Shown here piece by piece: positions 1 to 54,880 of a DNA stretch of 64,000 nucleotides. The notes under the pieces were generated by a model. That model saw only the letters and a list, made by a program, of their open reading frames with translations. It was not told the DNA's origin and searched no databases. Source of the stretch: a virus; IMG/VR virus record IMGVR_UViG_3300044971_004534; one strand, given 5' to 3'. Position 1 is the stretch's first letter. Every line of letters begins with the position of its first letter. The position numbers and the translations under genes were made by a program.

Positions 1-164
1 GGTCGATAGCATATTTCATAAAGGGTAAAGAAGGATATGATTTGATGTTTGTCGGAGATAGGCCGCTTGACTCCCGTGTAGATTGGAATCATTTCAGAGA
101 ACTTGTGGTTCTTGGTCAAAGGCTTGCAGATGAAAAGTGGCAGAATGAAGGAAACTACGAATGA
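1..164 (+). CDS. hypothetical protein, 5'-truncated at window edge (paralog of 4881..5186)
   Basis: Frame 3 open from window start to TGA 162-164; ...GKEGYDLMFVGDRPLDSRVDWNHFRELVVLGQRLADEKW aligns with C-terminus of 4881..5186 product; ATGA overlap with next start. Confidence 0.6.
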   Translation, partial: SIAYFIKGKEGYDLMFVGDRPLDSRVDWNHFRELVVLGQRLADEKWQNEGNYE

Positions 165-778
165 TTGAACCAACAGAAGGTGAAATTGTTGATGTTCTGA
201 ACAACTACCTCAACAGCGGTAACCGAGATACATTTCATCAGATTTTGATTGGTCGTGCCATTGCTGAGATCAAGCATCTCCGCATGCGTGTTGCCGATCT
301 CAAAAATGGATTTGAAGGTTCATGCACTGCATGTGAGCCTGTTGCTGAGATGAATAGAAAGTTGATGGAGGAGCGGGATGAAGCAAGGTGGGAAGTCTGT
401 GGTTTCCATCACCTGACTGGATTCCTTGCAGGAGATTACGCAATCTCCCGTGGTTGGAATTATTTCAATGATGAAAGAAAGTGGCCAAAGTTTCCACAAT
501 CGGTAACTGATTTCAAGCTGTTCCTTGAAGGTCAAGATAAGATTTTTCTTGAAAGTAATGATCGACTCCGCAAGGAACGGGACGAGGCGAGGCGGCTCCT
601 GAAGGCTGTCGTAGACATGATGCGCGACAACATGGCTCCCGATGCCACGCACCCGAAGCATGTGTGCGACTTCATTTACTGCCCCGAAATCGCTACATGC
701 ATGGTGTGCGAGAACTGGACTGACGCACTAGTGATGTGCTACCCCGATGATTTTCAGGACGAGGAGGAAACCAAATGA
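161..778 (+). CDS. ERDEAR/GW-motif family protein (two motif copies)
   Basis: ORF track; MEERDEARWEVC...AISRGWNYF and LRKERDEARRLL; ATGA junctions at both ends. Confidence 0.7.
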   Translation: MIEPTEGEIVDVLNNYLNSGNRDTFHQILIGRAIAEIKHLRMRVADLKNGFEGSCTACEPVAEMNRKLMEERDEARWEVCGFHHLTGFLAGDYAISRGWNYFNDERKWPKFPQSVTDFKLFLEGQDKIFLESNDRLRKERDEARRLLKAVVDMMRDNMAPDATHPKHVCDFIYCPEIATCMVCENWTDALVMCYPDDFQDEEETK

Positions 779-996
779 TTGAATACAAATGGAAAGAACT
801 AAAAGACAAGCGGCTACTGCTGACTGACAGGATCACAAGAATCAAACGCAGCGAATGGACGCTGCTTGAAATCTCTCCAAACAGCAAGGTGGGAAAGTTC
901 CGCAACGAACTTGCCGACACCTGTTTTTGGACTGACCTTGATGATCTCGTCGTGATGGATGTGCTTCACGACATGTACAAGGAGGAAACCAAGTGA
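775..996 (+). CDS. hypothetical protein
   Basis: ORF track; ATG in GGAGGAAACCAAATGA junction, stop overlaps next GTG. Confidence 0.6.
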   Translation: MIEYKWKELKDKRLLLTDRITRIKRSEWTLLEISPNSKVGKFRNELADTCFWTDLDDLVVMDVLHDMYKEETK

Positions 997-1229
997 ACGA
1001 ACACGATGCCATCGCAAGGATCAAGAGACTGTCTCACAGCATCAACTGTGCCGATGAGATCGCAGAAGTGATTGAGCGGCTAATCAAGGAGCGTGATGAG
1101 TTACGCTGCGAGGTTTGTGATTGGGTGGGCAACCACTTCAAGGAGCCACCGCAGGATGTAGCAAAGAGAAACGGCTGGGACTGCTTTGATACGGGTGTTT
1201 GGGATTGCTACAAGGAGAAAAGCAAGTGA
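993..1229 (+). CDS. ERDEAR/GWDCF family protein
   Basis: GTG start in GGAGGAAACCAAGTGA junction; IKERDELRCEVC...AKRNGWDCF. Confidence 0.7.
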   Translation: MNEHDAIARIKRLSHSINCADEIAEVIERLIKERDELRCEVCDWVGNHFKEPPQDVAKRNGWDCFDTGVWDCYKEKSK

Positions 1230-1597
1230 CCCCACACAATCTCAACATCTTGCTTGGACTTTCCACAGTCGGATTCGTCGTGGTGTCCCTGCTCTACATG
1301 ATTCACTTGCATGACACCAAGTGGAAACTCTTGAGCAAGGACAACAAGATTCGTCACCTTGAATCCGAGTTGCGCCACTACAGCAGTCTCTACTTTTCGG
1401 GATGCGCTTGCAAGAAGAGCCACGCACACACCGAGGAAGCGGAGAGCAAGCCCAATGAGAAGCACAGCAGCGGATGGTTCTCGTCCCTATTGAAAATGGG
1501 TATCTTGGCGGCGATTGCCTACCTTGCCTATTTCCTGTACAAGAAGTACAAGCAACGCTCAAAACCCGTTCCCGTCACAACAGAAGTAATCAACTGA
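1226..1597 (+). CDS. membrane protein
   Basis: GTG overlapping previous TGA (same frame as ORF-track 1199..1597); hydrophobic helices LLGLSTVGFVVVSLLYMI and GILAAIAYLAYFLY. Confidence 0.6.
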   Translation: MTPHNLNILLGLSTVGFVVVSLLYMIHLHDTKWKLLSKDNKIRHLESELRHYSSLYFSGCACKKSHAHTEEAESKPNEKHSSGWFSSLLKMGILAAIAYLAYFLYKKYKQRSKPVPVTTEVIN

Positions 1598-1617
1598 AAC
1601 ACAGAAAGGAGAAAGCC

Positions 1618-1719
1618 ATGAATAACTTTTGGAAGTACATCAAAGCCGCAGCCATCGTTGCTGGAGTGTCAATGGTGGCATACTACGGCTACAAAAAGAT
1701 CCGCAAGATGTTTGCTTGA
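1618..1719 (+). CDS. small membrane protein (33 aa)
   Basis: ATG after AAAGGAGAAAGCC; MNNFWKYIKAAAIVAGVSMVAYYGYKKIRKMFA; same frame as ORF-track 1474..1719. Confidence 0.45.
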   Translation: MNNFWKYIKAAAIVAGVSMVAYYGYKKIRKMFA

Positions 1720-1744
1720 CAGCACACCATTTACCTGCTATACT
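1716..1744 (+). promoter_or_regulatory. sigma70-type promoter TTGACA-N17-TATACT
   Basis: TTGACA 1716-1721, 17-nt spacer, TATACT 1739-1744, then AAGGAG and ATG 1766; near-identical twin at 2925. Confidence 0.65.
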
Positions 1745-1765
1745 CTAACAACAAGGAGACTGACA

Positions 1766-2047
1766 ATGACTAAGACTGCAACAAAGAACAAGACCAACAA
1801 GACCGTTACCACAAGTGCATCTGACCTCTACGACATCGCAAAGACGATGGAGGGTCTGTTCGCAAAGATTACTAAACTCAACAATAATGTCTCGTCACGC
1901 TCCATCAGCGGTCGTGATATTGAGAAGGCATGTGATGACATCTCAGAGGAGATGGGTGAGGCATTCGACACCCTGAAGACCATCCTCATTCAGAATGAAG
2001 TTGTCAGCGGACCTTCCTACCCCCTCACTCTGCCCAAGAAGATTTGA
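1766..2047 (+). CDS. hypothetical protein (MxKTATK N-terminus family)
   Basis: ATG 7 nt after AAGGAG, downstream of promoter; MTKTATKNKTNK...; in frame with ORF-track 1658..2047. Confidence 0.7.
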   Translation: MTKTATKNKTNKTVTTSASDLYDIAKTMEGLFAKITKLNNNVSSRSISGRDIEKACDDISEEMGEAFDTLKTILIQNEVVSGPSYPLTLPKKI

Positions 2048-2064
2048 TAACAAGGAGAACAACA

Positions 2065-2238
2065 ATGACTAACACCTGCGCCATGACACTCGCACAGAAG
2101 TCCGACCGCATCCTCGCGCAGACGCGAGGCTTGAGCGGAGCGACACCGAACGCCACGCAACTCATCGAAGAACTGCGGTGGGCGTTGGAGGAAAACATGA
2201 AGGAAGTGCAGCGGCTACGGAAGGAGGAAAGCAAGTGA
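2065..2238 (+). CDS. hypothetical protein
   Basis: ATG in CAAGGAGAACAACAATGACTAA junction (repeated at 3451); in frame with ORF-track 2044..2238. Confidence 0.6.
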   Translation: MTNTCAMTLAQKSDRILAQTRGLSGATPNATQLIEELRWALEENMKEVQRLRKEESK

Positions 2239-2357
2239 GCGACGATTTCGGAATCGGAGTGATTGTCGGCATCGTCCTGACGATGCTGTGTTGCCTCGCA
2301 GGGATCGGGATAAGCGTGCTGTTTCCAAGACGCCCGAAGAAGGAGGACGGCAAGTGA
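2235..2357 (+). CDS. small membrane protein (40 aa)
   Basis: GTGA overlaps at both ends, SD GGAAGGAGGAAAG upstream; VSDDFGIGVIVGIVLTMLCCLAGIGISVLFPRRPKKEDGK; too short for ORF track. Confidence 0.4.
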   Translation: MSDDFGIGVIVGIVLTMLCCLAGIGISVLFPRRPKKEDGK

Positions 2358-2599
2358 AGGACACAGACATCATTGCGGCGATTGCGCCCGATGCGGTATC
2401 GCTGATGGACAAGGCAATTGCGGAGATCAAGCGTCTGCGGCAGGAGAACGCAACCCTCACCGCCGAGCGAGATGAGGCACGACAGGAAGTGTGTTTTCTG
2501 TTGTCTCGTAATGTCACACAGGGATGTGACGGAGACACCCCAGAGTTTCATGCCACCGCCCGTGGGTGGTGCTACCTACTTGAGGAGGACGACGAATGA
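2354..2599 (+). CDS. ERDEAR family protein
   Basis: GTG after GAAGGAGGACGG, overlaps previous TGA; LTAERDEARQEVC...ATARGWCY; frame of ORF-track 2288..2599. Confidence 0.65.
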   Translation: MKDTDIIAAIAPDAVSLMDKAIAEIKRLRQENATLTAERDEARQEVCFLLSRNVTQGCDGDTPEFHATARGWCYLLEEDDE

Positions 2600-2928
2600 G
2601 CAACACCCAAACACCTCGCACCGACGCAGCAGAAACAAACTGGTGGAGTGAGGACGGTCTGCGGTCGGCGTTCATTGTTCGTGCAAATTTTGCCCGTGAA
2701 CTGGAGCGGGAGAACGCAATCCTCACCGCCGAGCGCGACGAGGCGAGGAGATATTCTTGCGATCTAGAAGCACGGATCATCGTGCTTGAGGAGGATCGTC
2801 GTGATACATCAAATAAATTTGGTACGAATCCCTGTTCAGAGATTATTCTGCCAGACTATCCTCTTGCAAGAGAGCCTAAAGAGATCGCAAAGCAAAAGGG
2901 CTGGGACTGCTTCAAAGATAACGCTTGA
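2596..2928 (+). CDS. ERDEAR/GWDCF family protein
   Basis: ORF track; ATGA overlap; LTAERDEARRYSC...AKQKGWDCFKDN. Confidence 0.7.
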   Translation: MSNTQTPRTDAAETNWWSEDGLRSAFIVRANFARELERENAILTAERDEARRYSCDLEARIIVLEEDRRDTSNKFGTNPCSEIILPDYPLAREPKEIAKQKGWDCFKDNA

Positions 2929-2953
2929 CAACACCCATAGACTGTACTATACT
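2925..2953 (+). promoter_or_regulatory. sigma70-type promoter TTGACA-N17-TATACT (twin of 1716)
   Basis: TTGACA 2925-2930 (overlaps stop of 2596..2928), 17-nt spacer, TATACT 2948-2953, AAGGAG, ATG 2975. Confidence 0.65.
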
Positions 2954-2974
2954 ATAACAACAAGGAGATTGACA

Positions 2975-3472
2975 ATGCCTAAGACTGCAACCAAGACCAA
3001 GAACATCACCGTTCATTCCGATGAGATCATTACCGCCTCATCTACCCGCCCCTCTCGCACCATCACCAACACCAACAACGATAGGAAGAACATGAGCATT
3101 GACAAGACCATCACCGTCACGGGCATCAAGTTTTGGAACTGGACGATCACGGCAAAGGTGATTGCAACCTTTGCGTACAATCCCAACACCAACACCTTCT
3201 CTCACACGCAGAACAGCATCGGAACCAACGATGGCGACATCTTTGGTCAGGGCAACGATTCGTCCGTTCCCAACATCTCGTTCAGCAACCATGTCAGCGT
3301 TGACGCTGTTCGTTGGGCAAAGATGAATGCCGATGCAGGAATGAACATCGGGCAGCAAGATGATTGGATTGATGCCATCTACACTTCTGCCGAGTTGAAC
3401 GCTGCTGTGACGGCAGAGTTGGAGTTGCTGAATACCGCTTCCACGATTGTCAAGGAGAACAACAATGACTAA
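2975..3472 (+). CDS. hypothetical protein (MxKTATK N-terminus family)
   Basis: ATG after AAGGAG downstream of promoter; MPKTATKTKNITV...; frame of ORF-track 2786..3472. Confidence 0.7.
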   Translation: MPKTATKTKNITVHSDEIITASSTRPSRTITNTNNDRKNMSIDKTITVTGIKFWNWTITAKVIATFAYNPNTNTFSHTQNSIGTNDGDIFGQGNDSSVPNISFSNHVSVDAVRWAKMNADAGMNIGQQDDWIDAIYTSAELNAAVTAELELLNTASTIVKENNND

Positions 3473-3830
3473 TCACAACAAGATCGCAGCAGATGAGTTT
3501 TGCAACAAGACGCACACTTCACCGATTGAGGCTTATGTCGCCAACAGAATCTATGAGTTGGAGACGCAGGTGAATCGGCTGAAGCAAGAGCGGGATGAAG
3601 CCCGTGCAGCCATTGAAATGCCTGCACAGAAGGCAAGCAAGTTCCGCAACCTGACTCAACAGGCCAACGATGTGCTTGACCTTGCCCGTGGCTATGACCC
3701 CAACTCCCTTGTAGGCAAGTTGGCTTCCCTTTTGGAGCAGACCACTTTCTACAAGGATCTCTACTACAACACGCTGACTCCTGCACAGCGTGAGAATCCG
3801 AATCTCGGTAGCATGGAGGACAGCAAGTGA
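3465..3830 (+). CDS. ERDEAR-motif protein
   Basis: ATG in CAAGGAGAACAACAATGACTAA junction; LKQERDEARAAIE; frame of ORF-track 3447..3830. Confidence 0.65.
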   Translation: MTNHNKIAADEFCNKTHTSPIEAYVANRIYELETQVNRLKQERDEARAAIEMPAQKASKFRNLTQQANDVLDLARGYDPNSLVGKLASLLEQTTFYKDLYYNTLTPAQRENPNLGSMEDSK

Positions 3831-4132
3831 GCAAGACCAAGAAGAAGACCAAGACCACCCGCATCACCAAGACGGAGCGTCTGTGTATTGCAGCAGAGAA
3901 GACCCGTCCAACGGGCATAACCGTTGCTGTGGGAAGACAGTACGAGGTGGAGATCGTCCCGATGTACGACCCCTTTACGCACAAGCGCATGACAGGGGTT
4001 CGTGCGGACCAGTGGGGCGACCCCGATGACACCGCCGCCCCCACCGTCTACATGGAAAGCCCGCATCAGTTGCGAATTCTTGCACAGGCTTTGAATCGGG
4101 CAGCAGATTGGATGGAGGAGGAGATCAAGTGA
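3827..4132 (+). CDS. hypothetical protein (Lys/Thr-rich N-terminus)
   Basis: ORF track; GTG in GGAGGACAGCAAGTGA junction. Confidence 0.6.
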   Translation: MSKTKKKTKTTRITKTERLCIAAEKTRPTGITVAVGRQYEVEIVPMYDPFTHKRMTGVRADQWGDPDDTAAPTVYMESPHQLRILAQALNRAADWMEEEIK

Positions 4133-4353
4133 GCGACATCACAGACATCGTTTCTCGCCTGCGTAGGACTGACGAGAACAGAGGAGTTGCAATCTGTTCA
4201 GAGGCAGCCGACACCATCGAACAACTCCGCAAAGAGCGTGACGAGGCGAGGCGGCTCTACTGCGTGATGCGCGATGGCGATGACGGTGCGAGTTGCGCGG
4301 ATTGGGCAAAGCGCAAGGGATGGGATTGCTTCAAGGAGAACACCAATGACTAA
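4129..4353 (+). CDS. ERDEAR/GWDCF family protein
   Basis: GTG in GGAGGAGGAGATCAAGTGA junction; LRKERDEARRLYC...AKRKGWDCFKEN; frame of ORF-track 4108..4353. Confidence 0.7.
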   Translation: MSDITDIVSRLRRTDENRGVAICSEAADTIEQLRKERDEARRLYCVMRDGDDGASCADWAKRKGWDCFKENTND

Positions 4354-4582
4354 AAATAAAACCATCAAGACTGATACCGAGACAATCACTAAGATTTCTG
4401 ACTTTGTTTGGGAACTCTCTACTGAGATGGATGCCATTAAGGATCAGATGGAGGTTTTGCAACTTCGTATGCTTTCTGTTCGCAAGATGCTACAGATAAT
4501 GGAAGACCCCAAGAACGGAACCGCACAAGACCATGCCACCCGACGCGGCTGGGACTGCTTCAAGGAAAACAACAATGATTGA
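4346..4582 (+). CDS. GWDCF-motif protein
   Basis: ATG after CAAGGAGAACACC; ...ATRRGWDCFKEN; frame of ORF-track 4274..4582. Confidence 0.65.
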   Translation: MTKNKTIKTDTETITKISDFVWELSTEMDAIKDQMEVLQLRMLSVRKMLQIMEDPKNGTAQDHATRRGWDCFKENNND

Positions 4583-4865
4583 CGACGACAAGAACGAAAC
4601 CATTACCTCTCTCCTACACACGATTGCTCTGATACGGGAAGCCGCAGGGGTCGGTGAGAAGCCCATGCTTTCGGAACTGCCCGATGTCATTCGGAAGTTG
4701 CGGAAGGAGCGTGACGAGGCGAGGCGTGAGTTGTGCAGGAATGAGGCAATCATCCGTTTGCAACGGCATCGTGTCCATAGAGACAGCGAAGATGTCGTGG
4801 GTCTGGCAAAGGAGATAGCGGTTGAGCGCGGATGGGACTGCTTCAAGGAGAACGCGGATGTTTGA
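4575..4865 (+). CDS. ERDEAR/GWDCF family protein
   Basis: ATG after CAAGGAAAACAAC; LRKERDEARRELC...AVERGWDCFKEN; frame of ORF-track 4533..4865. Confidence 0.7.
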   Translation: MIDDDKNETITSLLHTIALIREAAGVGEKPMLSELPDVIRKLRKERDEARRELCRNEAIIRLQRHRVHRDSEDVVGLAKEIAVERGWDCFKENADV

Positions 4866-4880
4866 AAGAGGAAACTACGA

Positions 4881-5186
4881 ATGAGCAATCTTTCAAAGCC
4901 TGTTAACACACGTTATTACAAGCCTCTAGAAAATCCAACTAGATACCCCCTTGAATTATGTTCGGATCACCACATCTGTCTTTGGTCAGAGGACGGAAAA
5001 TTTAAGTGGACGATAGCGTATTTCGTAAAGCATAAAGAAGGTTACGATTTGACGTTCATTGGAGATAGACCTCTTGACTCCCGCGTAAACTGGGATCATT
5101 TCAGAGAACTTGTAGTTATTGGTCAACAATTTGCAGATAAAGAGTGGGAAAACGAACACAAGGAAACTAAGAATGAACAATTATAA
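4881..5186 (+). CDS. hypothetical protein (paralog of truncated ORF 1..164)
   Basis: ORF track; start in AGGAAACTACGAATGA junction identical to 149-164. Confidence 0.65.
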   Translation: MSNLSKPVNTRYYKPLENPTRYPLELCSDHHICLWSEDGKFKWTIAYFVKHKEGYDLTFIGDRPLDSRVNWDHFRELVVIGQQFADKEWENEHKETKNEQL

Positions 5187-5367
5187 TAATTCAACGAGCA
5201 AGCAATTCAACTATGTTTTCATTTCAATTACTGTTTTGTTTTTGATGATGTTGGTCAATTGTGTTATTCTTTTTGGCATCATCAATATGTGTGATGGAAT
5301 GAATATGAGAATCAGTGAAATTGAGACACTAAACGGATTTGCAATTGATAAGGATCTTACGCAATGA
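5173..5367 (+). CDS. small membrane protein
   Basis: ATG in AGGAAACTAAGAATGA junction; FNYVFISITVLFLMMLVNCVILFGII helix; frame of ORF-track 5119..5367. Confidence 0.5.
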   Translation: MNNYNNSTSKQFNYVFISITVLFLMMLVNCVILFGIINMCDGMNMRISEIETLNGFAIDKDLTQ

Positions 5368-5543
5368 GTGACGATCAACCAAAGACCATTAAGGAAATGG
5401 TTACGGATGCACTGACAAGCGTTGTCACGGAGATGTGGCGGGAAGAAAACCCGTACCTAGATCCGCAGGATTATGCTTATGACTTTCAGCGATTCTGTGA
5501 GAGGAAGTTGTTTTGTGCCATGGGACTAAGAGGGAAGCAGTGA
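5364..5543 (+). CDS. hypothetical protein (59 aa)
   Basis: ATGA overlap at 5364, TGATG overlap at 5543; MSDDQPKTIKEMVTDALTSVV...; fills a gap left by the 60-aa ORF-track cutoff. Confidence 0.4.
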   Translation: MSDDQPKTIKEMVTDALTSVVTEMWREENPYLDPQDYAYDFQRFCERKLFCAMGLRGKQ

Positions 5544-6130
5544 TGGCATACAAACAGGCATGGCTCATTGGCTGCACCCATTTCGGTCACGATGCCATGT
5601 ATACGTTCAGGAGAAAAAACGGCGAGAAGGTTCGTCCATACCAAAACGCAGCGGAAGGCGATGAGGTGATGGTTGAGAACTGGAATCGTGTGGTAAAACC
5701 CGGTGACAAGGTGTACGTCCTTGGAGATGTCGCTTTCCGTCCTGAGCATCTTGCCGTGATGAATAGCCTGAACGGATCAAAGGTTCTCATCAAGGGAAAC
5801 CACGATGACTTGCAGATGTCTGTCTACGCGAAGTACTTCAGGGACATCCGTGCCACACATCAGTTGGAGAACGAAATACTTTCCCATATCCCGCTGCATC
5901 CGCAGTCTCTTTACAGGCACAAGACTGGCGGCTACTGGCTGAACATCCATGCACATCTTCATGCTGAAGCGGTGATGGAGGGAGATGAAGGATGCCCTGA
6001 TGACCTGATGCGACCGCACATGTCTGAAGATCCCAGGTATTTCTCCGTGTGTGTCGAGCGCATCGGCTACACTCCCATATCCATTGACGAGATCAGGAGC
6101 AGGCTTGACAGGACTGCGAAGGAATCATAA
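5543..6130 (+). CDS. calcineurin-like metallophosphoesterase
   Basis: CTHFGH, VLGDVAF, KGNHD, IPLHP, HAHLH motifs in MPP order; start moved to ATG 5543 within ORF-track 5513..6130. Confidence 0.8.
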   Translation: MAYKQAWLIGCTHFGHDAMYTFRRKNGEKVRPYQNAAEGDEVMVENWNRVVKPGDKVYVLGDVAFRPEHLAVMNSLNGSKVLIKGNHDDLQMSVYAKYFRDIRATHQLENEILSHIPLHPQSLYRHKTGGYWLNIHAHLHAEAVMEGDEGCPDDLMRPHMSEDPRYFSVCVERIGYTPISIDEIRSRLDRTAKES

Positions 6131-6131: not shown

Positions 6132-6419
6132 ATGAACAGGCTGCAACGGATAGAAAAAGGCATCATCGACAGGATGGTTCCAGATGAGCAGTACGACTAC
6201 AATCAGATCATGTTCGCTGCTTCTGAGTACGTGTATGCTGGAGTCAATTCTGTTGAGGTGGATGAAGTTCTTCTTATCCTCATCAAGAGAGGAGTGATCA
6301 TGCCAGTGTCAAAGAAGGGCGGCAAATCTTCTCTTCGGCAAATACTCCATGACGAGTGCATGTTCGTTCTCAATCCGTTCGGAGAACTCCTTGAAAAGGC
6401 AAAAAGCTACAATGCGTGA
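6132..6419 (+). CDS. small wHTH-like protein (paralog set A)
   Basis: ATG 6132 in frame of ORF-track 6051..6419; C-terminus NPFGELLEKAKSYN shared with 6412 and 7048 products. Confidence 0.6.
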   Translation: MNRLQRIEKGIIDRMVPDEQYDYNQIMFAASEYVYAGVNSVEVDEVLLILIKRGVIMPVSKKGGKSSLRQILHDECMFVLNPFGELLEKAKSYNA

Positions 6420-6684
6420 AGGCAGCAAGAAACTCTGCGTTGTTGAAGAGGACATCTTGTCCAGCATCGTGTCTGCACGAAAGATTGAGTATCACGCCCT
6501 GTACAGGCGTGTGAAGAAAAAACACGGCAATTTCAACCTGAACGACTTCAGCGTTTATCTGTCGAATCTTTTGCGTGAGAACTACATCACGGAAGACAGG
6601 TTCAGGGACGCAATGGGAAGAGTGTCTTTTGTGGAAATTTCACCCACGCCGTTCTACGAATTGCTGAAAGCCGCCAAAAATTGA
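6412..6684 (+). CDS. small wHTH-like protein (paralog set A)
   Basis: ATG 6412 in frame of ORF-track 6349..6684; C-terminus TPFYELLKAAKN. Confidence 0.6.
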   Translation: MREGSKKLCVVEEDILSSIVSARKIEYHALYRRVKKKHGNFNLNDFSVYLSNLLRENYITEDRFRDAMGRVSFVEISPTPFYELLKAAKN

Positions 6685-6726
6685 AGTTTTCGTGGCGATA
6701 CGGCATATGTTCGGTTACTGGTTAGT

Positions 6727-6894
6727 ATGAGCCCTGAATTCGCCATGGTGTTGTCTTTTGTTGCCATTCCTGCCTTCATTGCGTTCCTTGGATACGCCAT
6801 GTACAACGAGGTCTGGCCTTTTGAGCCCAAAGTAAATTACCCCAAAAAGAATTTTGGAGCAAAGAACTATGTCTACCCCCAAAGAAAAGTCTGA
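6727..6894 (+). CDS. small membrane protein (55 aa)
   Basis: Hand-translated: MSPEFAMVLSFVAIPAFIAFLGYAMYNEV...; co-oriented with neighbours, preferred over antisense ORF 6715..7026. Confidence 0.35.
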   Translation: MSPEFAMVLSFVAIPAFIAFLGYAMYNEVWPFEPKVNYPKKNFGAKNYVYPQRKV

Positions 6895-7021
6895 ATACAT
6901 CACCGTTTCCGTTCCTGTCTCTGCGATCAAGTCTGTTGTCATTACTGCATTCACCGCTTGGGGCATCTGGATTCTGTACCTGATGGTGCAGATGATGGCA
7001 AGCATGCCCGTGAAAAAGTAA
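6869..7021 (+). CDS. small membrane protein (50 aa)
   Basis: Hand-translated: MSTPKEKSEYITVSVPVSAIKSVVITAFTAWGIWILYLMVQMMASMPVKK. Confidence 0.35.
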   Translation: MSTPKEKSEYITVSVPVSAIKSVVITAFTAWGIWILYLMVQMMASMPVKK

Positions 7022-7047
7022 TGCATCGTTCAGGAGGTGCGTGAGTA

Positions 7048-7344
7048 TTGAAGCGCTCCGTGAATCCATCCATAAAAGCGCTGGAAGAAAAGATACTTTT
7101 CTTCATCATGCACCATGACAGAACAAGGCCTGTTTCTTTTTTCGATATCTACACACACGCAGAAATTGAGTTCGGCGTTAACGCACTGGACCGCACCAAG
7201 AGGCACATGTTCTCTAACAGGGTGCATAATGCCGTGAACAGGCTTCAGCGCAAGGGTCGCATCTATACGGTGGGCGGAACTTTCACTCTTTTCATGGCGA
7301 ATCCTTTCAGCGAGATCATCGACATCGCCAAGAGCAAGAATTAA
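7048..7344 (+). CDS. small wHTH-like protein (paralog set A)
   Basis: ORF track (TTG start after AGGAGG); C-terminus NPFSEIIDIAKSKN. Confidence 0.6.
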   Translation: MKRSVNPSIKALEEKILFFIMHHDRTRPVSFFDIYTHAEIEFGVNALDRTKRHMFSNRVHNAVNRLQRKGRIYTVGGTFTLFMANPFSEIIDIAKSKN

Positions 7345-7349
7345 CTTAC

Positions 7350-7769
7350 ATGTTTATTCTTCCAGGGACAAAGCTTCGTGTGACCGTCTACCGAAACCTG
7401 CAAAAGCAGTGTTGGTCTGTAAAAGATAGGTACACGGGAAGAGTCATTGCCCATCTGCCTTCTCTTTGTCTTGAAGGTGAAGGGGGCTGCGTTTTCAAGG
7501 TGTCACAGTCAGGGCGCGAGCGCGTTCTTCGTGAGCGGGTAAAGAATGTCCATGCGGGAGTGTGGAGTGAGTGGACGGCAACCGATCACCCTTGGCAGTA
7601 CACGCCACTGAAAAAGGCAGTCAAAGTGTCTTACAATCCGTACAGAGCGCCCCACTTCGTCACTGTCCACAACAAGCCTGTCTTGAGTGCAAAAAGAGTG
7701 GAATTTCGTCCAGACGGGACAGCGTGGGCAGAAGATGTAATCTATGGGAAAGTAGCGTACATTCCTTGA
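7350..7769 (+). CDS. hypothetical protein
   Basis: ORF track, ATG start. Confidence 0.65.
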   Translation: MFILPGTKLRVTVYRNLQKQCWSVKDRYTGRVIAHLPSLCLEGEGGCVFKVSQSGRERVLRERVKNVHAGVWSEWTATDHPWQYTPLKKAVKVSYNPYRAPHFVTVHNKPVLSAKRVEFRPDGTAWAEDVIYGKVAYIP

Positions 7770-7794
7770 CGCGGGGACGCAGGGGGTGTACAAT
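7766..7794 (+). promoter_or_regulatory. sigma70-type promoter TTGACG-N17-TACAAT, probably leaderless
   Basis: TTGACG 7766-7771, 17-nt spacer, TACAAT 7789-7794; ATG 7801 lies 7 nt after the -10 with no SD. Confidence 0.5.
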
Positions 7795-7800
7795 CGTGTC

Positions 7801-7995
7801 ATGGCTACCAAATCCGCTATTCTTATCCCAAAAGAAGATTACAAAAAGTTACGTTCAATCCTGAAGGGCAGGAATCCAGAGGCTATTAGAAACTCTCGCA
7901 AGCGGACTGCGAGACTGTGCAAGTCCATTGCTGCACACCGATCTTCCATTCGTGCCAGTGTGCGCTCCCTCAAGTCTGCAAGAGACAGTCGTTGA
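7801..7995 (+). CDS. small basic protein (64 aa)
   Basis: ATG 7801 in frame of ORF-track 7786..7995; MATKSAILIPKEDYKKLRSILKGRNPEAIRNSRKR... Confidence 0.5.
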   Translation: MATKSAILIPKEDYKKLRSILKGRNPEAIRNSRKRTARLCKSIAAHRSSIRASVRSLKSARDSR

Positions 7996-7997
7996 GC

Positions 7998-8462
7998 ATG
8001 GAGCCGTTTGACTACGGGGTTGATTTCTCTTCCGTTGATTTCAGGAAGAATCCCCATCTGTACAAAGTGGGCAGGGGAGAACAGGGCGTTCTCCTTGTGG
8101 AGCCGTACAAGAGCGAGATTCTTCCCCATTGGCGTTTCAGGAATCCTGCCATTGCACGTGAGTCTGCCCAAAAGATTTACAGAATGTTCCTGTCGTACAT
8201 CTCGCAGGGAGATTTCGTTGGTGCTGACATGGCGAGAAAGTACCTGATGATGGGTTGGACTCGCGCAAGAAGGTACGCAAACTACTCCGGTGGTAAAAAG
8301 TACGGAAGTGACGGAAAGCTCAACGAGCGTCTTCCCGATCACGACACATCGGAAAAGGCTCAATCCGCCGCCGTATTCAAGGAGTACTACGAGATGGCAA
8401 AATCAAACAAAGAATATGGGCAGATGCTCATTTTTTGGGGGAAGACAAATGCTGTCTCCTGA
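7998..8462 (+). CDS. DUF4385-like protein
   Basis: DFRKNPHLYKVGRGEQGVLLVEPYKSEILPHWRF...TRARRYANYSGGKKY matches my memory of DUF4385; ATG 7998 in frame of ORF-track 7917..8462. Confidence 0.6.
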   Translation: MEPFDYGVDFSSVDFRKNPHLYKVGRGEQGVLLVEPYKSEILPHWRFRNPAIARESAQKIYRMFLSYISQGDFVGADMARKYLMMGWTRARRYANYSGGKKYGSDGKLNERLPDHDTSEKAQSAAVFKEYYEMAKSNKEYGQMLIFWGKTNAVS

Positions 8463-8754
8463 AGAAAAGGAAAAGCGTCTCCGAGCAATCCGGGAAGTCT
8501 ACGAGAGGGCGCGTGATGATTGGGAGCGTGAAGGCGGCTTTGAAGGAAGGCGTGGCTGGACTCACAGAGCACGCAGTTGCTATGAACACGCAAAGGCGCG
8601 TTATGAATGGGCTCTCAAGGGGTATTTTCATTGGGAGCCAGGTTACGGCTTGATGACAGAAGAACAGCGTCAAGAGAACGAAACCCGTCAAGAGAAGTGG
8701 ATGCAGAATTTTTTTGCAGAAGTAGACGAGTGGAAGAAGACGCGGGGCTTCTAA
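8449..8754 (+). CDS. hypothetical protein
   Basis: ATG 8449 in frame of ORF-track 8290..8754; 14-nt overlap with previous gene. Confidence 0.55.
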   Translation: MLSPEEKEKRLRAIREVYERARDDWEREGGFEGRRGWTHRARSCYEHAKARYEWALKGYFHWEPGYGLMTEEQRQENETRQEKWMQNFFAEVDEWKKTRGF

Positions 8755-8975
8755 AACTCCAATTCGCTCCTCCATAAGCAAAATCCACTTCATAAGAAAA
8801 TTCGGGGCAAGGAAAGTACACATCAACACTACTTATAGTATTTTTTCATTTACAATCCACTACCTATTGGTATTGCGTCTAAAATGCTACTTCTTTCCTT
8901 CCTTTTTTACACCCCAGTCTTTAAGCTTAAAAAGCTGCAAAATTATTCTTAAAACTTAAAAACCTTTCTCCTTGT

Positions 8976-19062: not shown

Positions 19063-20085
19063 ATGAATCTCGTTGAGAAGATCAAGCGCAACCGCAAGAC
19101 GGGTGTTCCCACCTTCATCTTTGGTGCGCCCGGTGTTGGCAAGTCGCAGATGGTTCATCAGGCAGCGGACGGGGACACCGTGATTGATGTCCGTCTGTCC
19201 ATGCTTGATCCGGTTGACCTGCGTGGTCTGCCGACCGTCAAGCAGAACGGCGATGGTGAGTCCGTGGTTGAGTGGGCGCGTCCTGAGTTCATCCCGGCTG
19301 AAGGCAAGGGCATCATCTTCTTTGATGAGTTGAACACCGCCCCCGCTGCCGTGCAGAACGCTGCGCTTCAGATCATCCTTGATCGCAAGTGTGGTCCGCA
19401 TAAGTTGGGCGATGGTTGGTACATCGTGGCTGCGGGAAACAAGGCTTCCCACAAGGCTCATGTCAACCCGCTCTCCGCACCGCTCCGCAACCGCTTTGCC
19501 GTGGTTGAGTACGAGCCGTCCGTTGAGGCTTGGTCTGCGTGGGCGATGGGTGCGGGAGTTCACGACCATGTGATCGGCTTCCTCAACTTCCGCCCCGGTC
19601 TGCTCACGACCGATCCGAAGGACGAGTACGCCAACTTTGCCTCCCCCCGTTCGTGGGATCGCGTGTCGAAGTTCCTTCAGGCGGGTCTTGACGAGCAGGA
19701 GGACATGGAGCCTCTTGTCGGCAAGGGTGCTGCTGCGGAGTTCACGGCGTATCGGACGGAGATTCGGGATATGCCCGACATTGACGCTCTGATTGCGAAG
19801 AAGGCTGAGTTCAAGGAGAACCCCAAGAAGATCAGCATTTCCTACGCTGTGGCGATGGCTCTCGCTTCCCGCCTGTCCCGTGGTGACAAGAAGTTCGTGA
19901 CCACGAACGCGGATCGGTGCTGTGAGATCGTGTCTGCCCTGTCCCCGGAGATCGCGTGTCTGTTCTTTGTCCGTACTCTCACCTCCGATCCTCATGTCAA
20001 GACCGCTGTGTGTGAGAGCAAGTCTGCTCACAAGTGGGTGCTGACCCATGAGAAGTTGCTGACGAAGTACGGGATCAAGAAGTAA
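19063..20085 (+). CDS. MoxR/CbbQ-like AAA+ ATPase (AAA_5)
   Basis: Walker A GAPGVGKS, Walker B IIFFDELN, TAPAAVQNAALQIILDRK sensor region. Confidence 0.9.
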   Translation: MNLVEKIKRNRKTGVPTFIFGAPGVGKSQMVHQAADGDTVIDVRLSMLDPVDLRGLPTVKQNGDGESVVEWARPEFIPAEGKGIIFFDELNTAPAAVQNAALQIILDRKCGPHKLGDGWYIVAAGNKASHKAHVNPLSAPLRNRFAVVEYEPSVEAWSAWAMGAGVHDHVIGFLNFRPGLLTTDPKDEYANFASPRSWDRVSKFLQAGLDEQEDMEPLVGKGAAAEFTAYRTEIRDMPDIDALIAKKAEFKENPKKISISYAVAMALASRLSRGDKKFVTTNADRCCEIVSALSPEIACLFFVRTLTSDPHVKTAVCESKSAHKWVLTHEKLLTKYGIKK

Positions 20086-20132
20086 TCCCCCCGCAGGAGT
20101 GGGGGGAGGGCGGCAACGCTCTCCCCCTCTCC

Positions 20133-20166
20133 CTCTTTTTCCCCCTTCCCCGAAGGACTTGGGACA
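20133..20166 (+). promoter_or_regulatory. conserved intergenic cassette copy 3 (leaderless class)
   Basis: core 20133-20145; TTG +14..16; ATG 20166 at +21. Confidence 0.55.
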
Positions 20167-21416
20167 TGGCAAAGAAGAAGAACAACTCCACCGCAACCGC
20201 CGCTCCTGCTGCCGACAACGCTCAGGATGTCGGACTCACGCCTTCTGAACTCAACGAACTCCGTGAGCGCATGAAGGGCATCGTGTTCCGTATGTACCGC
20301 TTCTTTCCCTTTTGGGGACTGCTTGCGGAGAACTGCAAGGTGTCGATCAAGTCCGACAAGGATGTTCCGACCGCCTGTGTTGACCGATACGGCAACATCA
20401 GTTTCGGAGCAAAGTTCTTCAAGGACTTGACCGAAGATCAGGCGTTGTTCGTCCTCGCGCATGAGATCGGTCACGCTGCGTTCAGTCACATTGATCGCCG
20501 TCAGAGCCGTGATCCGCTGCTTTGGAATGTTGCGATTGACTACGCCATCAACCTCCTCCTGTCGGACAACTTCAACGATTCCAAGTATCTGCCGAAGGGT
20601 GTCCTGCTTGACAAGAAGTACGCGGGGATGTCCGCTGAGGAGATTTACGAAGATGTCATCCGCAACGCCAAGACCGTGAAGGTCTACACGCTTTCGGGCG
20701 ATGTTGACTACAGCGACAAGGGCGAGGATGGCGATGGCGATGGCGATGGCATCGTGATCCGTGATCGCCGTGCCGAAAAGAAGGGCAACGAGCAGGGTTG
20801 GGATCAGGCAATCGCCTTGAGCCATGCCCGTGCAAAGATGCAGGGCGATATGCCTGAGTCTCTTGATCGTGCCGTGTCGGAGAAGTTGGGCAGCAAGATT
20901 GATTGGCGCGAAGCACTCAAGCAGTACCTCCGCTTTGGCGTGACTCGCATCCTGCGGGATCACTACACCTTCATGCCCCCGAACCGCCGCTTTGTCCATC
21001 AGGGTCTTTACTTGCCGTCCATGTACGGCAACGATGCCCCGAAGATCGGCTTTGCCGTGGACACCTCCGGTTCGATTGGTGAGTCAGAGATGGCTCAGGC
21101 AATCGCTGAGATTGATGAGATTCGCCGTCAGTTCAACTGCCCTCTTTACCTTGTGGAGTGTGATGCGGAAGTCCATGACGGGCGTTGGATCAGTCCCGAT
21201 CAGTCCTGCCCAACGGCGTTCAAGGGCGGCGGCGGAACCGATTTCCGTCCCGTGTTTGACCACCTCAAGGAGCAGAAAGTCCCCGTGGACATTATGGTGT
21301 ACCTCACCGATGGCTACGGCGAGTTTGGAGATCAGCCCGAAGTCGATGTCCTTTGGGTCACGACCACGAATGTCAAGCCGCCTTATGGCGACCACATTCA
21401 AGTGGGTGTGGGCTAA
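20166..21416 (+). CDS. VWA-domain protein with N-terminal zincin-like domain (MoxR partner, DUF2201-like)
   Basis: HEIGHAAFSH (HExxH) and MIDAS DTSGSIG; immediately downstream of the MoxR ATPase. Confidence 0.85.
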   Translation: MAKKKNNSTATAAPAADNAQDVGLTPSELNELRERMKGIVFRMYRFFPFWGLLAENCKVSIKSDKDVPTACVDRYGNISFGAKFFKDLTEDQALFVLAHEIGHAAFSHIDRRQSRDPLLWNVAIDYAINLLLSDNFNDSKYLPKGVLLDKKYAGMSAEEIYEDVIRNAKTVKVYTLSGDVDYSDKGEDGDGDGDGIVIRDRRAEKKGNEQGWDQAIALSHARAKMQGDMPESLDRAVSEKLGSKIDWREALKQYLRFGVTRILRDHYTFMPPNRRFVHQGLYLPSMYGNDAPKIGFAVDTSGSIGESEMAQAIAEIDEIRRQFNCPLYLVECDAEVHDGRWISPDQSCPTAFKGGGGTDFRPVFDHLKEQKVPVDIMVYLTDGYGEFGDQPEVDVLWVTTTNVKPPYGDHIQVGVG

Positions 21417-23538: not shown

Positions 23539-23567
23539 TTGACACTCCATTGAACCAACGCTATACT
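23539..23567 (+). promoter_or_regulatory. sigma70-type promoter TTGACA-N17-TATACT
   Basis: TTGACA 23539-23544, TATACT 23562-23567; AAAGGAG before ATG 23619. Confidence 0.6.
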
Positions 23568-23947: not shown

Positions 23948-24302
23948 GGGGCTGAACTGGTTTCGATTGCTGAAGGACTATTCGATACTGCACGACGAGG
24001 CTGATGGGCAACTCGTAAAAAGCCGATCAAACAACAACCGCCAACGAATCGTTGATGGCTGTCGCTGCTTGATGCAGCAAAGTTCTTAGAAGTTGGACAC
24101 TTGCTTCTAAGAACTGTCTGAAGTGTCGATCAGCGTACTGCGAAGTTCCAACGCATAAGGCGCTGAAGTTAATATTATATGATTTGGAACTTTCAAAGGA
24201 CTCATGGTACGAGGACTCCTTTGATCGACGGACTCGTACCTAGCGTGGAGAAGGTGCGATAGGACTTTTGCCAACACAGGGGTTCGACTCCCCTCGGCTC
24301 CA
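23948..24302 (+). ncRNA. ssrA: tmRNA (SsrA), tag ADQTTTANESLMAVAA
   Basis: 5' GGGGCTGAACTGGTTTCGA; 3' T-arm GGGGTTCGACTCCCC plus acceptor CGGCTCC-A pairing with the 5' end incl. G3:U; tag ORF GCC 24022 to TGA 24072 after an A-rich tract; no encoded CCA. Confidence 0.8.
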
Positions 24303-24311
24303 TTCAGCAAG

Positions 24312-47856: not shown

Positions 47857-48179
47857 ACGTGATTTCTGTGATAAACGCTGTTGTCAACGGGGTAATGGCG
47901 CTTGGTTTTAGTGCATTTCTGGTGTTCCTGTTTGGAAGAGAGAATTCCCTTATTCATAAATTGGGTAATATGAATGTTATTTTCGTGAAGATCATCCTGA
48001 GCATGTGTGCTTCTGGGGCTCTTTACAATGCGTGCATACTCCACGAGCCAGCGCCTTCGGAGCTGTTGCTTAATGCGGGTGTTGCCGCGCTGTTTTGCTG
48101 GGCTTCCGTATTCCATTACATGCGATTCGTGAAGCCAATTAAGAAAAAAGCGGCAAAGAAAAAAAGACGCACAAAGTGA
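47853..48179 (+). CDS. membrane protein (3 predicted helices, basic tail)
   Basis: ORF track; ATGA overlap; tail KKKAAKKKRRTK. Confidence 0.5.
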   Translation: MNVISVINAVVNGVMALGFSAFLVFLFGRENSLIHKLGNMNVIFVKIILSMCASGALYNACILHEPAPSELLLNAGVAALFCWASVFHYMRFVKPIKKKAAKKKRRTK

Positions 48180-48228
48180 TTACTTAAACAAGGAATGCTA
48201 GCGCAGACAGTTCACTTTTTTGTAAAAA

Positions 48229-48262
48229 GGGATACCTTAGTGAATTGGGGCAATAGTAAGAT
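48229..48262 (+). promoter_or_regulatory. GGGATACCTTAG motif plus TAAGAT, copy 3
   Basis: motif 48229-48240; TAAGAT 48257-48262, 16 nt after CCTTAG; ATG 48281 downstream. Confidence 0.35.
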
Positions 48263-48280
48263 TTGGAGGAAGTATTACGC

Positions 48281-49102
48281 ATGCATACGATTATCAATAC
48301 GCTAAGGGGTCGCTTCGTGCACGGGAAGGACGAGAGCGAGTACTACGAATCAATCATAAAAAACGTCCATACGGGAATGGATCACACGTTCTGCTTTTCC
48401 GTATGCAACACTGAATTGCCAGAGATTCCTCCGGGAACAATTGTATTTTCTACATCTGACGAACACCACAGGCAGCCCATACCGAACCACTTGCAGGAAA
48501 ACGTTGGGATACTTTTGAAGACTTTTTTCCCCAAGGAAGGGGTGACTGACCATCGTGTGCTGCCGTTTCCTCTGGGTTATTTCACGGATTTTGGGGGCCA
48601 TGCGCTTACTCCTATTGCGGAGAGAGGTCTTGACTACTCGTTCTACGGTGCTCACAACGACAATGGTCGTGACAAGCTGCACGGATGGCTAAGGAAGCGA
48701 AAGGGGGACGGATGCAAGAAGGAGTGGGGTTTTTACGAAGGTTGGGGCAAGGGAAAGGGGATGTGGGACTACGGTTCGCTGCTGACGAAGACAAAGATCG
48801 CTCTTTGTCCTCCTGGATACGTGAGTCCTGAATGCGCAAGGCTTCCAGAAGCTGCTCGCTGCGGTTGCGTCCTTCTAGTCCCGAATGACTTGCCCACGCA
48901 TCTATGGTATTTCCAGGGGTTTCCTGGGATAAAGATTGAAGACTGGTCGAACCTGAAGATTGTTGACGAACTGCTTGCAGATCCTAAAAGGATGCAGGAC
49001 ATCAGCGACGAAACAGTGAAATGGTACAACAGGTGCATTGATCCAAAAGCCGTGGGTGCATGGCTTACGGAAAGGATCAAGGAAAGAATCCAAAAGGCAT
49101 AA
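48281..49102 (+). CDS. exostosin (GT47)-like glycosyltransferase
   Basis: ALCPPGYVSPECARLPEAARCGCVLLV resembles the exostosin C-terminal motif; ATG 48281 10 nt after GGAGGA (ORF track lists TTG 48263). Confidence 0.5.
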   Translation: MHTIINTLRGRFVHGKDESEYYESIIKNVHTGMDHTFCFSVCNTELPEIPPGTIVFSTSDEHHRQPIPNHLQENVGILLKTFFPKEGVTDHRVLPFPLGYFTDFGGHALTPIAERGLDYSFYGAHNDNGRDKLHGWLRKRKGDGCKKEWGFYEGWGKGKGMWDYGSLLTKTKIALCPPGYVSPECARLPEAARCGCVLLVPNDLPTHLWYFQGFPGIKIEDWSNLKIVDELLADPKRMQDISDETVKWYNRCIDPKAVGAWLTERIKERIQKA

Positions 49103-49105
49103 ACT

Positions 49106-49591
49106 ATGCAGTACAAATTATCTAAAAGCGAATGGCTCAAAATAGGCGAACAAGCTGGATGGCTGAGGATCAGCGGGGAACAGGCAGTCCTGACGAAGCA
49201 GGGGAAATCAAATGTTGCTGGTGCGGTCTTTCAGGTGATGCGTAAACCCGAGATAGCAAAGAGGATCATTGAACTTTCTAAAATCTGGAATTCCAATTCA
49301 AGCGAGTTTAGCAAGAAGCTTCAAGATCTGGAGCAAGAGATCGTTGTTGACTATCATAATTTTTTGGACACAGGAGCATCAGAAGATTTGTTCATTGACC
49401 GAATCGAGTTACGGAGTATCATTGAAAAAATCATCTATAAAATGCTTGAAGTTGGCGACTTGGGAGTTCGGGAAGCAGGCGAACAAGCTGGATGGCTGAA
49501 GGAAGCCAAGTGCTGGAAGGGCTACAAAGCCGTTGGCATGAAGAAGAAAAAGGGCAAGACCGTTCCCAATTGCGTCCGCAAGGAGAGCTGA
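49106..49591 (+). CDS. QYKLSK-domain protein (module 1, gene A)
   Basis: MQYKLSKSEWLKIGEQAGWLRI N-terminus; C-terminus GEQAGWLKEAKCWKGYKAVGMKKKKGKTVPNCV; internal 22-nt exact repeat 49145/49478. Confidence 0.65.
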   Translation: MQYKLSKSEWLKIGEQAGWLRISGEQAVLTKQGKSNVAGAVFQVMRKPEIAKRIIELSKIWNSNSSEFSKKLQDLEQEIVVDYHNFLDTGASEDLFIDRIELRSIIEKIIYKMLEVGDLGVREAGEQAGWLKEAKCWKGYKAVGMKKKKGKTVPNCVRKES

Positions 49592-50437: not shown

Positions 50438-50460
50438 CGAACACCTGTTTTGTTTTTTGT

Positions 50461-50492
50461 ATCCCCCGAAAAATTATGGAGGGGGATTTTTA
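50461..50492 (+). terminator. rho-independent terminator
   Basis: ATCCCCC ... GGGGGAT stem followed by TTTTTATT. Confidence 0.6.
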
Positions 50493-51181: not shown

Positions 51182-51199
51182 AAATTATAAGGAAAACAC

Positions 51200-53059: not shown

Positions 53060-53068
53060 GGTTGCTGT

Positions 53069-54860: not shown

Positions 54861-54880
54861 TACATCTTTGGAAAACACAC

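Follow-up and report, generated by a model that had tools for sequence, protein, structure and literature searches.

A viral family of small genes whose modules are exchanged in frame at two short motifs

The 64,000-nucleotide (nt) stretch of IMG/VR virus record IMGVR_UViG_3300044971_004534 analyzed here (hereafter, the window) carries at positions 161–4865 a cluster of small genes, many of whose products share two short motifs, ERDEAR and GWDCF. An earlier note, made from the letters alone, had assigned eight products (161, 993, 2354, 2596, 3465, 4129, 4346, and 4575, named by the first position of each gene) to one paralogous family. In a six-frame regular-expression scan, ERDE[AL]R occurs eight times (371, 575, 1089, 2465, 2731, 3588, 4234, and 4707) and GW[DNC][CY][FLY] seven times (449, 1170, 2561, 2896, 4315, 4544, and 4827). 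Every match is on the plus strand within 161–4865, and neither pattern occurs elsewhere on either strand of the whole 64 kb. To avoid circularity, a hidden Markov model (HMM) was made from 54 distant representatives, each with <50% identity over ≥35 amino acids (aa) to any window member. This HMM picks exactly the eight named open reading frames (ORFs) among the 653 in the window, with E values from 2.2e-21 to 1.2e-6, and the best non-member ORF gives 0.46. Pairwise BLASTP between members reaches 5e-14 (7.5e-11 for the 4346 and 4129 products), and the divergent 3465 product is found at 5e-12 by a profile built without it. Both the grouping and its two motifs are borne out by these results.

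The possibility that the likeness reflects chance or a low-complexity coiled coil should be noted, since the weak matches to known families come from coiled-coil families alone, including the L-x-KERDEAR string of Prp19 at E ~1e-3. The independent profile, however, reaches 2e-21 with a clean gap to 0.46, the GWDCF anchor is conserved though non-helical, and thousands of homologues have the same architecture. The motif scan, the homologue search, and the independent profile together refute this explanation, to which we assign a negligible probability.

The genes and elements of the region are listed in Table 1. A GGAG-type Shine-Dalgarno sequence lies 7–10 nt upstream of all eight member starts, and full-length database homologues agree with the starts at 161, 2354, 2596, 3465, and 4575. 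Most member starts overlap the preceding stop as ATGA, GTGA, or ATGAnTAA, in line with the chained overlaps described previously. The description as a tandem array holds in that the paralogues are clustered, but the array is not pure: eight non-family or fragment genes (775, 1226, 1618, 1766, 2065, 2235, 2975, and 3827) lie between the members, and two sigma-70-type promoters divide the region into at least three transcription units. The size range of 75–125 codons given in the earlier note does not hold for the 161 product. This product does contain ERDEAR twice, as had been stated. Its unit 1 comprises ERDEAR (aa 71–76), Cys at +4, and RGWNYF, and its unit 2 comprises ERDEAR (aa 139–144) followed by a Cys-rich tail in place of GWDCF. 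The Cys expected after ERDEAR is found four residues on in six of the eight motif copies, the exceptions being unit 2 of the 161 product and the 3465 product. The 4346 product has STEMDAIK at the ERDEAR position, and the 2065 product stops at LRKEESK, the point where ERDEAR would start.

Table 1. Features in and around the gene cluster of the window
Feature	Position	Strand	Basis or remark
Flanking gene, 3' part (96 aa; paralogue of 4881–5186)	42–164	+	In upstream copy of the direct repeat bracketing the array
Family member, 205 aa, two units	161–778	+	HMM E 3e-13
Interspersed 73-aa gene, non-family, ATGA-coupled	775–996	+	No match in HMM search
Family member, 78 aa; ERDELR, Cys, GWDCF, then a second VWDCY	993–1229	+	HMM E 2.9e-16
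Two interspersed non-family genes, 123 aa and 33 aa	1226–1597, 1618–1719	+	Hydrophobic stretches, read by eye
Sigma-70-type promoter, TTGACA-17-TATACT; heads 62-nt cassette repeated at 2947	1716–1744	+	11/12 consensus matches
First gene of transcription unit 2, 93 aa (MTKTATK...), non-family	1766–2047	+	Leader and N-terminus common to 2975–3472
Stand-alone N-terminal module, 57 aa	2065–2238	+	Fused to complete members in P0109 and P0250
Interspersed 40-aa peptide, hydrophobic core, GTGA-coupled	2235–2357	+	Gene-start analysis
Family member, 81 aa; ERDEAR, Cys, shifted anchor RGWCYL	2354–2599	+	HMM E 1.4e-13; start as in P0066 and P0133
Family member, 110 aa, long middle module, ends KDNA	2596–2928	+	HMM E 1.4e-14
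Sigma-70-type promoter cassette, second copy	2925–2953	+	11/12 consensus matches; repeat
First gene of transcription unit 3, 165 aa (MPKTATK...), non-family	2975–3472	+	Repeat D7
Divergent family member, 121 aa; ERDEAR without Cys, degenerate anchor ARGYD, long tail	3465–3830	+	HMM E 1.2e-6
Interspersed basic gene, 101 aa, non-family	3827–4132	+	Gene-start analysis
Minimal canonical member, 74 aa; DIVxRLR, ERDEAR, Cys, 15-residue segment, KRKGWDCFKENTND	4129–4353	+	HMM E 2.2e-21
Family member, 78 aa; C-terminal anchor RRGWDCFKENNND only	4346–4582	+	HMM E 6e-10
Canonical member, 96 aa	4575–4865	+	HMM E 3.8e-19
101-aa paralogue of the gene ending at 164; end of flanking direct repeat (4706–5147)	4881–5186	+	Repeat comparison

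A profile search for the family yields 1253 clusters at 90% identity; at the 50% level, 2133 representatives match at E ≤ 1e-3, including 409 at E ≤ 1e-10. The homologues are nearly all 60–200 aa long and labeled "hypothetical". At least 199 IMG/VR viral contigs encode the family, and among the genomes of 185,579 species it is found on five short metagenome-assembled contigs. The loci hold one to eight copies, clustered on one strand. The 161 product is also encoded on contigs as long as 406,100 bp; among these, a JGI contig of 406,003 bp breaks off within the array. This is a genuine and large family, essentially viral and without a name.

Existing libraries do not recognize it, as the earlier note had supposed, and no credible match was found in Pfam, NCBIfam, PHROG, PADLOC, PDB, or BFVD. 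Pfam gives sub-threshold coiled-coil matches only, and NCBIfam nothing below 0.03. In PHROGs v4, the best match of a canonical member is 0.0036, and no PHROG matches more than two of 87 members; the divergent 3465 product matches phrog_5915, of unknown function, at 6.7e-5 over 24 residues. PADLOC, whose models describe defence systems and not their inhibitors, gives scattered single matches to coiled-coil ATPases only. Among GenBank phages, neither a megablast search with window 1–6000 nor a tblastn search with the two-unit homologue P0003 gives a match, so that no relative in culture or with annotation came to light, and a full-text literature search on the motif strings finds no relevant paper. 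The structure comparison proposed in the earlier note reveals no well-known domain either: Foldseek searches of PDB and BFVD with two AlphaFold2 models of moderate confidence give nothing at E ≤ 0.001. In a profile search of PDB, the best match (E 9e-4) is to the helix of Prp19 alone. Prp19 (PF08606; PDB 8xi2 and 3jb9) has a local L-x-K-E-R-D-E-A-R string in a coiled coil; it lacks the GWDCF anchor and has an unrelated domain architecture. Identity with Prp19 was rejected, judging from the PF08606 score (14.9 bits against a threshold of 22.7) and the extent of the match (~10 helix residues), and we regard the likeness as convergent helix chemistry.

Several other candidates were rejected. The Ead/Ea22-like early coiled-coil proteins of lambdoid phages are absent from the Pfam matches at E ≤ 1 of all eight members. 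A zinc ribbon or zinc finger requires four ligands, and the core has two conserved Cys residues (C45 and C67 in the 4129 product), though a metal site shared by two subunits would still be compatible with such a core. A target of a diversity-generating retroelement does not fit, because the middle modules vary in length (15–50 aa) and throughout their sequence; none of them is present twice in the region, and no explicit scan for a reverse transcriptase was made. A type II toxin-antitoxin pair was rejected on the grounds that Pfam and PHROGs show no toxin domain in the eight members, the 775 product, or the flank gene at 4881.

In a unit of the family, a long helix at the N-terminus, with L-x-x-E-R-D-E-A-R-x-x-x-C at its end, is followed by a variable segment of ~15–50 residues and then by a closing anchor, A-x-x-(R/K)-G-W-D-C-(F/Y). 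In 87 diverse members, R37, R41, C45, and W65 (numbering of the 4129 product) are invariant, and L33, E36, D38, E39, A40, A60, G64, D66, and C67 are conserved at ≥90%. Variable N-termini on a common core had been predicted and are indeed found; the middle segment is more variable still. All members are acidic (isoelectric points 4.4–5.7), and no signal peptide is seen in their sequences. In the AlphaFold2 model of the 74-aa 4129 product, residues 2–48 and 56–63 form helices (mean predicted local distance difference test score (pLDDT) 72). The model of the 205-aa 161 product is all-helical with a mean pLDDT of 75, exceeding 90 on the second long helix. ERDEAR looks like a coiled-coil register element (heptad positions E=g, R=a, A=d, and R=e), in which L33, R37, A40, and V44 would take core positions and E36 and R41 the g and e positions.

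Two further features of the chains should be mentioned. The Cys-rich tail of the 161 product (window 650–778) has the pattern C-x4-C-x5-C-x2-C...C, with AlphaFold2 confidence below 50, and could be a metal-binding module. Extensions past GWDCF recur at the C-terminus in two forms, one ending in ..LDEEMGL(L/ND) and the other reading NTPE..LNGV.VDGGKA.PPKYEDI, in two groups of homologues (P0024, P0026, P0033, P0107, P0131, P0145, and P0245; P0005, P0019, P0041, P0102, P0170, and P0202). These extensions look like short add-on modules or docking peptides.

To describe how the units vary, 180 of them were cut at the motifs and the pieces were clustered at 70% identity. The N-terminus of the 993 product, N-module MNEHDAIARIKRLSHSINCADEIAEVIERLIK, occurs with 10 different middle modules, and 18 different N-modules precede one middle module, WEVCGFHHLTGFLAGDYAISR, which is that of the 161 product. 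Modules of window members recur in new pairs among the homologues: P0042 combines the 2596 N-module with the 4575 middle module, P0066 the 2354 N-module with the 2596 middle module, and P0071 the 993 N-module with the 4129 middle module, while P0109 and P0250 have an N-module of the 2065 type fused to a complete member. A related 65.5-kb IMG/VR contig (L093) is 94–98% identical to the window over the shared segments, with the array rearranged, and three of the breakpoints between the two fall, at nucleotide resolution, on the ERDEA codons. N- and middle modules therefore reassort almost independently between genes and contigs, and the junctions lie on the ERDEAR codons.

The same picture is obtained from an all-vs-all comparison of 164 family genes, in which shared segments of ≥120 nt at ≥90% identity were kept. 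Of the internal 3' ends of shared segments, 33% lie at 0 to +44 nt relative to the motif start, and 48% of the internal 5' starts lie at −45 to +17 nt, against ~13% of gene positions in one 45-nt window; this enrichment is an upper estimate, since the high-scoring segment pairs are non-independent counts and the motif is a conserved island. A second peak of ends, 90–135 nt downstream, fits GWDCF or the gene end for short middle modules and is consistent with crossovers that also peak at the GWDCF end of the gene. Window members can be aligned at the anchors only (~15 codons), and their differences elsewhere represent module replacement. The rapid diversification supposed in the earlier note is thus supported, with recombination that swaps modules at the motifs as the main route seen here. 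On the reverse complement of L093, at 3111–3593, the N-terminus of a DNA methyltransferase (DPPY motif) is fused at ERDEAR to a C-module of the family.

The DNA of the motifs should also be described. The amino acids of ERDEAR are kept across 39 synonymous DNA versions and those of GWDCF across 19, which shows selection on the motifs at the protein level. The codon choice in ERDEAR is nevertheless far from that in the rest of the same genes: the last Arg is AGG in 71% (11.6% elsewhere), Ala is GCG in 76% (27%), and the two Glu residues are GAG in 85% and 93% (52%). The dominant DNA form, GAGCGCGACGAGGCGAGG(CGG), is found in the window at 575–595, 4234–4254, and 4707–4727. It includes two GAGG strings, so that an effect at the RNA level, such as ribosome pausing, is possible. 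The uniformity of the motif DNA would be produced by repeated exchange through the sequence, or by selection for a shared joint.

The end of the second motif has to be read differently. In 118 distinct gene ends, the two codons past GWDC(F/Y) are exactly AAGGAG in 57%, and in 100 of the 118 (85%) an out-of-frame ORF of ≥40 aa starts ≤30 nt past the F/Y codon, mostly at 13–17 nt. The coupled starts are thus 7–11 nt past AAGGAG. The 2596–2928 gene, which is followed by a promoter and not by a coupled gene, ends in KDNA without a Shine-Dalgarno sequence and is the sole such member in the window. The KEN tail is largely the Shine-Dalgarno sequence of the next coupled gene, a dual-coded stretch. 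Of the second motif as first described, the GWDCF core therefore stands, while the (K/D)(E/D)N part falls on the ribosome-binding site of the following gene, and the motif is to be read as A-x-x-(R/K)-G-W-D-C-(F/Y).

These observations bear on an explanation in which the motifs are mainly DNA or RNA elements, namely recombination sites or ribosome-binding or pausing signals, with the protein motif as a by-product. Synonymous codon choice would predict far less uniform motif DNA, and the exact AAGGAG at the KE codons fits such a role. However, the amino acids are retained across the synonymous versions, the invariant residues fit a single helical face, and the motif is kept without a downstream gene and across 2133 clusters at 50% identity. 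We consider this explanation improbable. Judging from these points, a role at the DNA level adds to protein constraint, the KEN tail being the exception. A double role of the motifs can also be conceived. In the protein, they would serve as a structural clasp, closing off a variable segment displayed on a coiled-coil stalk; in the DNA, where they are homogenized to GAGCGCGACGAGGCGAGG and GGCTGGGACTGCTTCAAGGAG, they would be in-frame recombination joints at which phage recombinases could exchange N- and middle modules among the tandem copies, with combinatorial diversification of cassettes in a counter-defence or host-targeting repertoire as the result. This double role is possible, though we hold it unlikely.

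The two promoter sequences at 1716 and 2925 (TTGACA-17-TATACT, matching 11 of the 12 consensus positions) each have the stop codon of the prior gene inside the −35 box. Both lead into the same leader and first codons (MxKTATK), forming a cassette of at least 62 nt, and the leaders of 1766 and 2975 (repeat family D7) are 89% identical over 62 nt. The promoter pattern has three copies in the window against 0.14 expected, and no stem-loop terminator lies beside the 1716 and 2925 promoters. The third exact copy of TTGACA-17-TATACT is at 23539–23567, between a tRNA-Arg gene and the tmRNA gene. The overlapping starts and the Shine-Dalgarno sequences in the last codons of upstream genes indicate that the genes are laid out for translational coupling.

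In 80 viral loci, the commonest identifiable neighbors are RusA, DNA polymerase A, Gp157, DnaB, a T7-type primase-helicase, ERF, RecT, and a 5'-3' exonuclease. Orphan DNA methylases and one S-AdoMet lyase are also found among the sampled neighbors, and a T7-like RNA polymerase lies within the fetched flanks of ten loci. On the reverse complement of L093, an 825-aa T7-like single-subunit RNA polymerase (6404–8881) comes immediately after the shortened array; no T7-like RNA polymerase of this kind is present in the window. Expression in the early or middle period is plausible from the promoters and from the neighborhood of replication, recombination, and RNA polymerase genes. More specifically, the array would be read early by host RNA polymerase from the strong sigma-70-type promoters and translated as coupled chains, which we consider probable.

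At the protein level, the N-terminal helix would form a coiled-coil stalk, the two anchors would pack together, and the variable segment would be displayed at the end of the stalk, an arrangement that we propose tentatively. The members may bind or inhibit host proteins, as small acidic factors with a part in anti-defence or host takeover; target specificity would lie in the variable segment, and recombination among tandem copies would supply new combinations. To this function we give a chance equal to or slightly above that of the stalk, still somewhat short of even. Taken as a whole, a viral family that is shuffled at its motifs, read early in coupled chains, and made of coiled-coil binders of host proteins has, in our estimate, about an even chance of being the right description.

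The neighborhood can be explained in another way. The members may serve the phage's own replication and recombination as coiled-coil adaptors or regulators of the neighboring recombinases, helicases, and nucleases, which are the top identifiable neighbors in the 80 loci. Core replication accessories, in contrast, are normally single-copy and conserved, while one to eight copies with a hypervariable middle are found here. Moreover, the array differs between contigs that are 94–98% identical over their shared segments, and the family accompanies very different replication modules and is present in a ~406-kb genome. Such a role is therefore unlikely, yet deserves to be kept in mind.

The members may, alternatively, take part in competition between phages or mobile elements or neutralize toxins in the manner of antitoxins, that is, in superinfection exclusion or in antitoxin mimicry against abortive-infection toxins. 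In P0122, a Logan contig of 1.7 kb, an N-module of the family (DIVxRLR...EIERLR) is fused to a TacA-like segment (PF08681; score 26.3 bits, gathering threshold 21), and a copy of the 161 gene follows immediately. The combinatorial variability would fit a conflict system. This fusion is, however, a single case on a short contig and a possible read-through artefact; the window shows no toxin partner, and PADLOC gives scattered coiled-coil noise only. We consider this alternative still less likely than a role in replication.

The favored description as a whole has points against it that should be weighed together. The libraries searched reveal no relationship to known anti-defence, regulator, or toxin families, and the longer homologues have no informative domain fusion save the TacA-like case. 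The replication and recombination neighborhood fits a role in the phage's own DNA metabolism equally well. The promoters are consensus matches only, and the breakpoint enrichment, as stated above, is an upper estimate. The structure models are monomers of moderate confidence, so that anchor packing and dimerization go beyond the models. Both cysteines are present in 359 of 411 units, but the coupled loss of the two is not significant (Fisher p = 0.06, with noisy anchor detection), and a large subgroup (WEVCGFHH...GWNYF) has Tyr at the second Cys site. An obligatory disulphide or metal pair in all members is accordingly not supported by the sequences.

Known systems resemble the array in part. 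Lytic phages have early takeover blocks such as the class I genes of T7, upstream of its RNA polymerase gene, and the host-takeover module of SPO1. These blocks are likewise chains of small genes with strong host-type promoters and ribosome-binding sites, next to phage RNA polymerase or replication genes; no member of the present family, however, matches Ocr, Gp0.7, Gp2, or another known takeover protein. Pilin variation also has a hypervariable segment between two short conserved Cys-encoding segments, which serve in addition as DNA for exchange with other copies. Pilin is a secreted fiber subunit with a proven disulphide and varies by gene conversion from silent donors, whereas all copies here look expressible, their sequences show no signal peptide, and some members lack the Cys pair. 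The resemblance to pilin is one of design and not of homology.

The hyperplastic regions of T4-type phages are shuffled via PeSL regulatory cassettes (Arbiol et al. 2010, PMC2839356; PMC4122927). As in the present region, they are clusters of small genes of unknown function, described as non-essential, with repeated strong sigma-70-like promoter cassettes (at 1716 and 2925 here), and close relatives differ in content through recombination at short conserved sequences. The main junctions here are, by contrast, inside the coding sequence at a protein motif, and protein halves are swapped in frame instead of whole genes. No stem-loop terminator accompanies the promoters here, and the genes are paralogues, while those of the T4 regions are unrelated ORFans. 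In polymorphic toxin and CDI/Rhs (contact-dependent inhibition/Rhs) cassettes, a conserved motif marks the constant-to-variable junction (PMC3482391). A short conserved peptide at the point where variable modules are exchanged with neighboring cassettes, and stand-alone fragments beside full genes, are common to both (here the N-module-only 2065 and the anchor-only 4346). Unlike those toxins, the products here are small (70–200 aa), acidic, cytoplasmic proteins without a secretion or toxin domain or an immunity-gene partner, both halves vary, and Pfam gives no polymorphic-toxin domain. The array belongs to none of the PeSL, polymorphic-toxin, and pilin systems, having no defining domain of any of them, and we file it as a variable small-gene family of phage early regions, unusual for its in-frame, motif-anchored shuffling.

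The array is bracketed by a direct repeat of ~440 bp (window 4706–5147 and JGI contig L001 9539–9980, 91% identity), which contains a family gene from ERDEAR to its end and the flank gene of ~100 aa. The 4575 member from ERDEAR on is inside the downstream copy of this repeat, and a ninth family member lies just 5' of the window (L001 9360–9698). Within the window, positions 1–149 repeat 5008–5156 at 81% identity (repeat D1). The JGI contigs L001 and L002 both end at the match to window position 4832, inside the GWDCF codons. A scan of 1–5400 with Rfam finds no RNA family. Among the interspersed genes, the products of 1226–1597 and 1618–1719 resemble small membrane proteins. Immediately after the array region, the ORF at 5513–6130 has, read by eye, GHD...GD...GNHD, which resembles the signatures of a calcineurin-like metallophosphoesterase; it has no Pfam match at 1e-3.

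Between 11527 and 30855, the window has seven tRNA genes and a tmRNA gene (23948–24305, tag peptide ANESLMAVAA). Together with the ~406-kb contigs, this leads us to take the window as part of a very large phage genome. At 19063–21416, a MoxR-like AAA ATPase (phrog_1297) adjoins a DUF2201 metallopeptidase/VWA protein, and in two related contigs (L091 and L092) an AAA_5 ATPase lies near a family member, L092 also having a subtilase. From 48000 to 64000, the GC content drops from ~0.55–0.60 to 0.32–0.37, and this AT-rich block contains giant ORFs at 57305–60004 (899 aa) and 59958–63086 (1042 aa) with no Pfam or PHROG match. The compositional heterogeneity suggests a mosaic origin or an assembly chimera.

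The analysis goes beyond the earlier note in three respects: modules are joined at the motifs, the codons of the C-terminal tail also provide the Shine-Dalgarno sequence of the next gene, and the middle segment varies even more than the N-terminus. The way in which this large family evolves is clear. With more than 2000 clusters at 50% identity that are absent from Pfam, NCBIfam, and PHROGs, it is a well-delimited part of viral "dark matter", ready to receive a name and a model. The dual coding of the KE codons as a Shine-Dalgarno sequence and the homogenized motif codons show how gene-boundary signals and recombination shape small phage proteins, and caution that conserved C-terminal residues need not mean constraint on the protein. 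If the double role of the motifs is true, a design like that of pilin or polymorphic toxins would be at work in small intracellular phage proteins. A variable segment flanked by two anchors, exchange of both halves at these points, and turnover at the strain level have the look of arms-race families, and the family is a reasonable candidate set for anti-defence and host-takeover screens.

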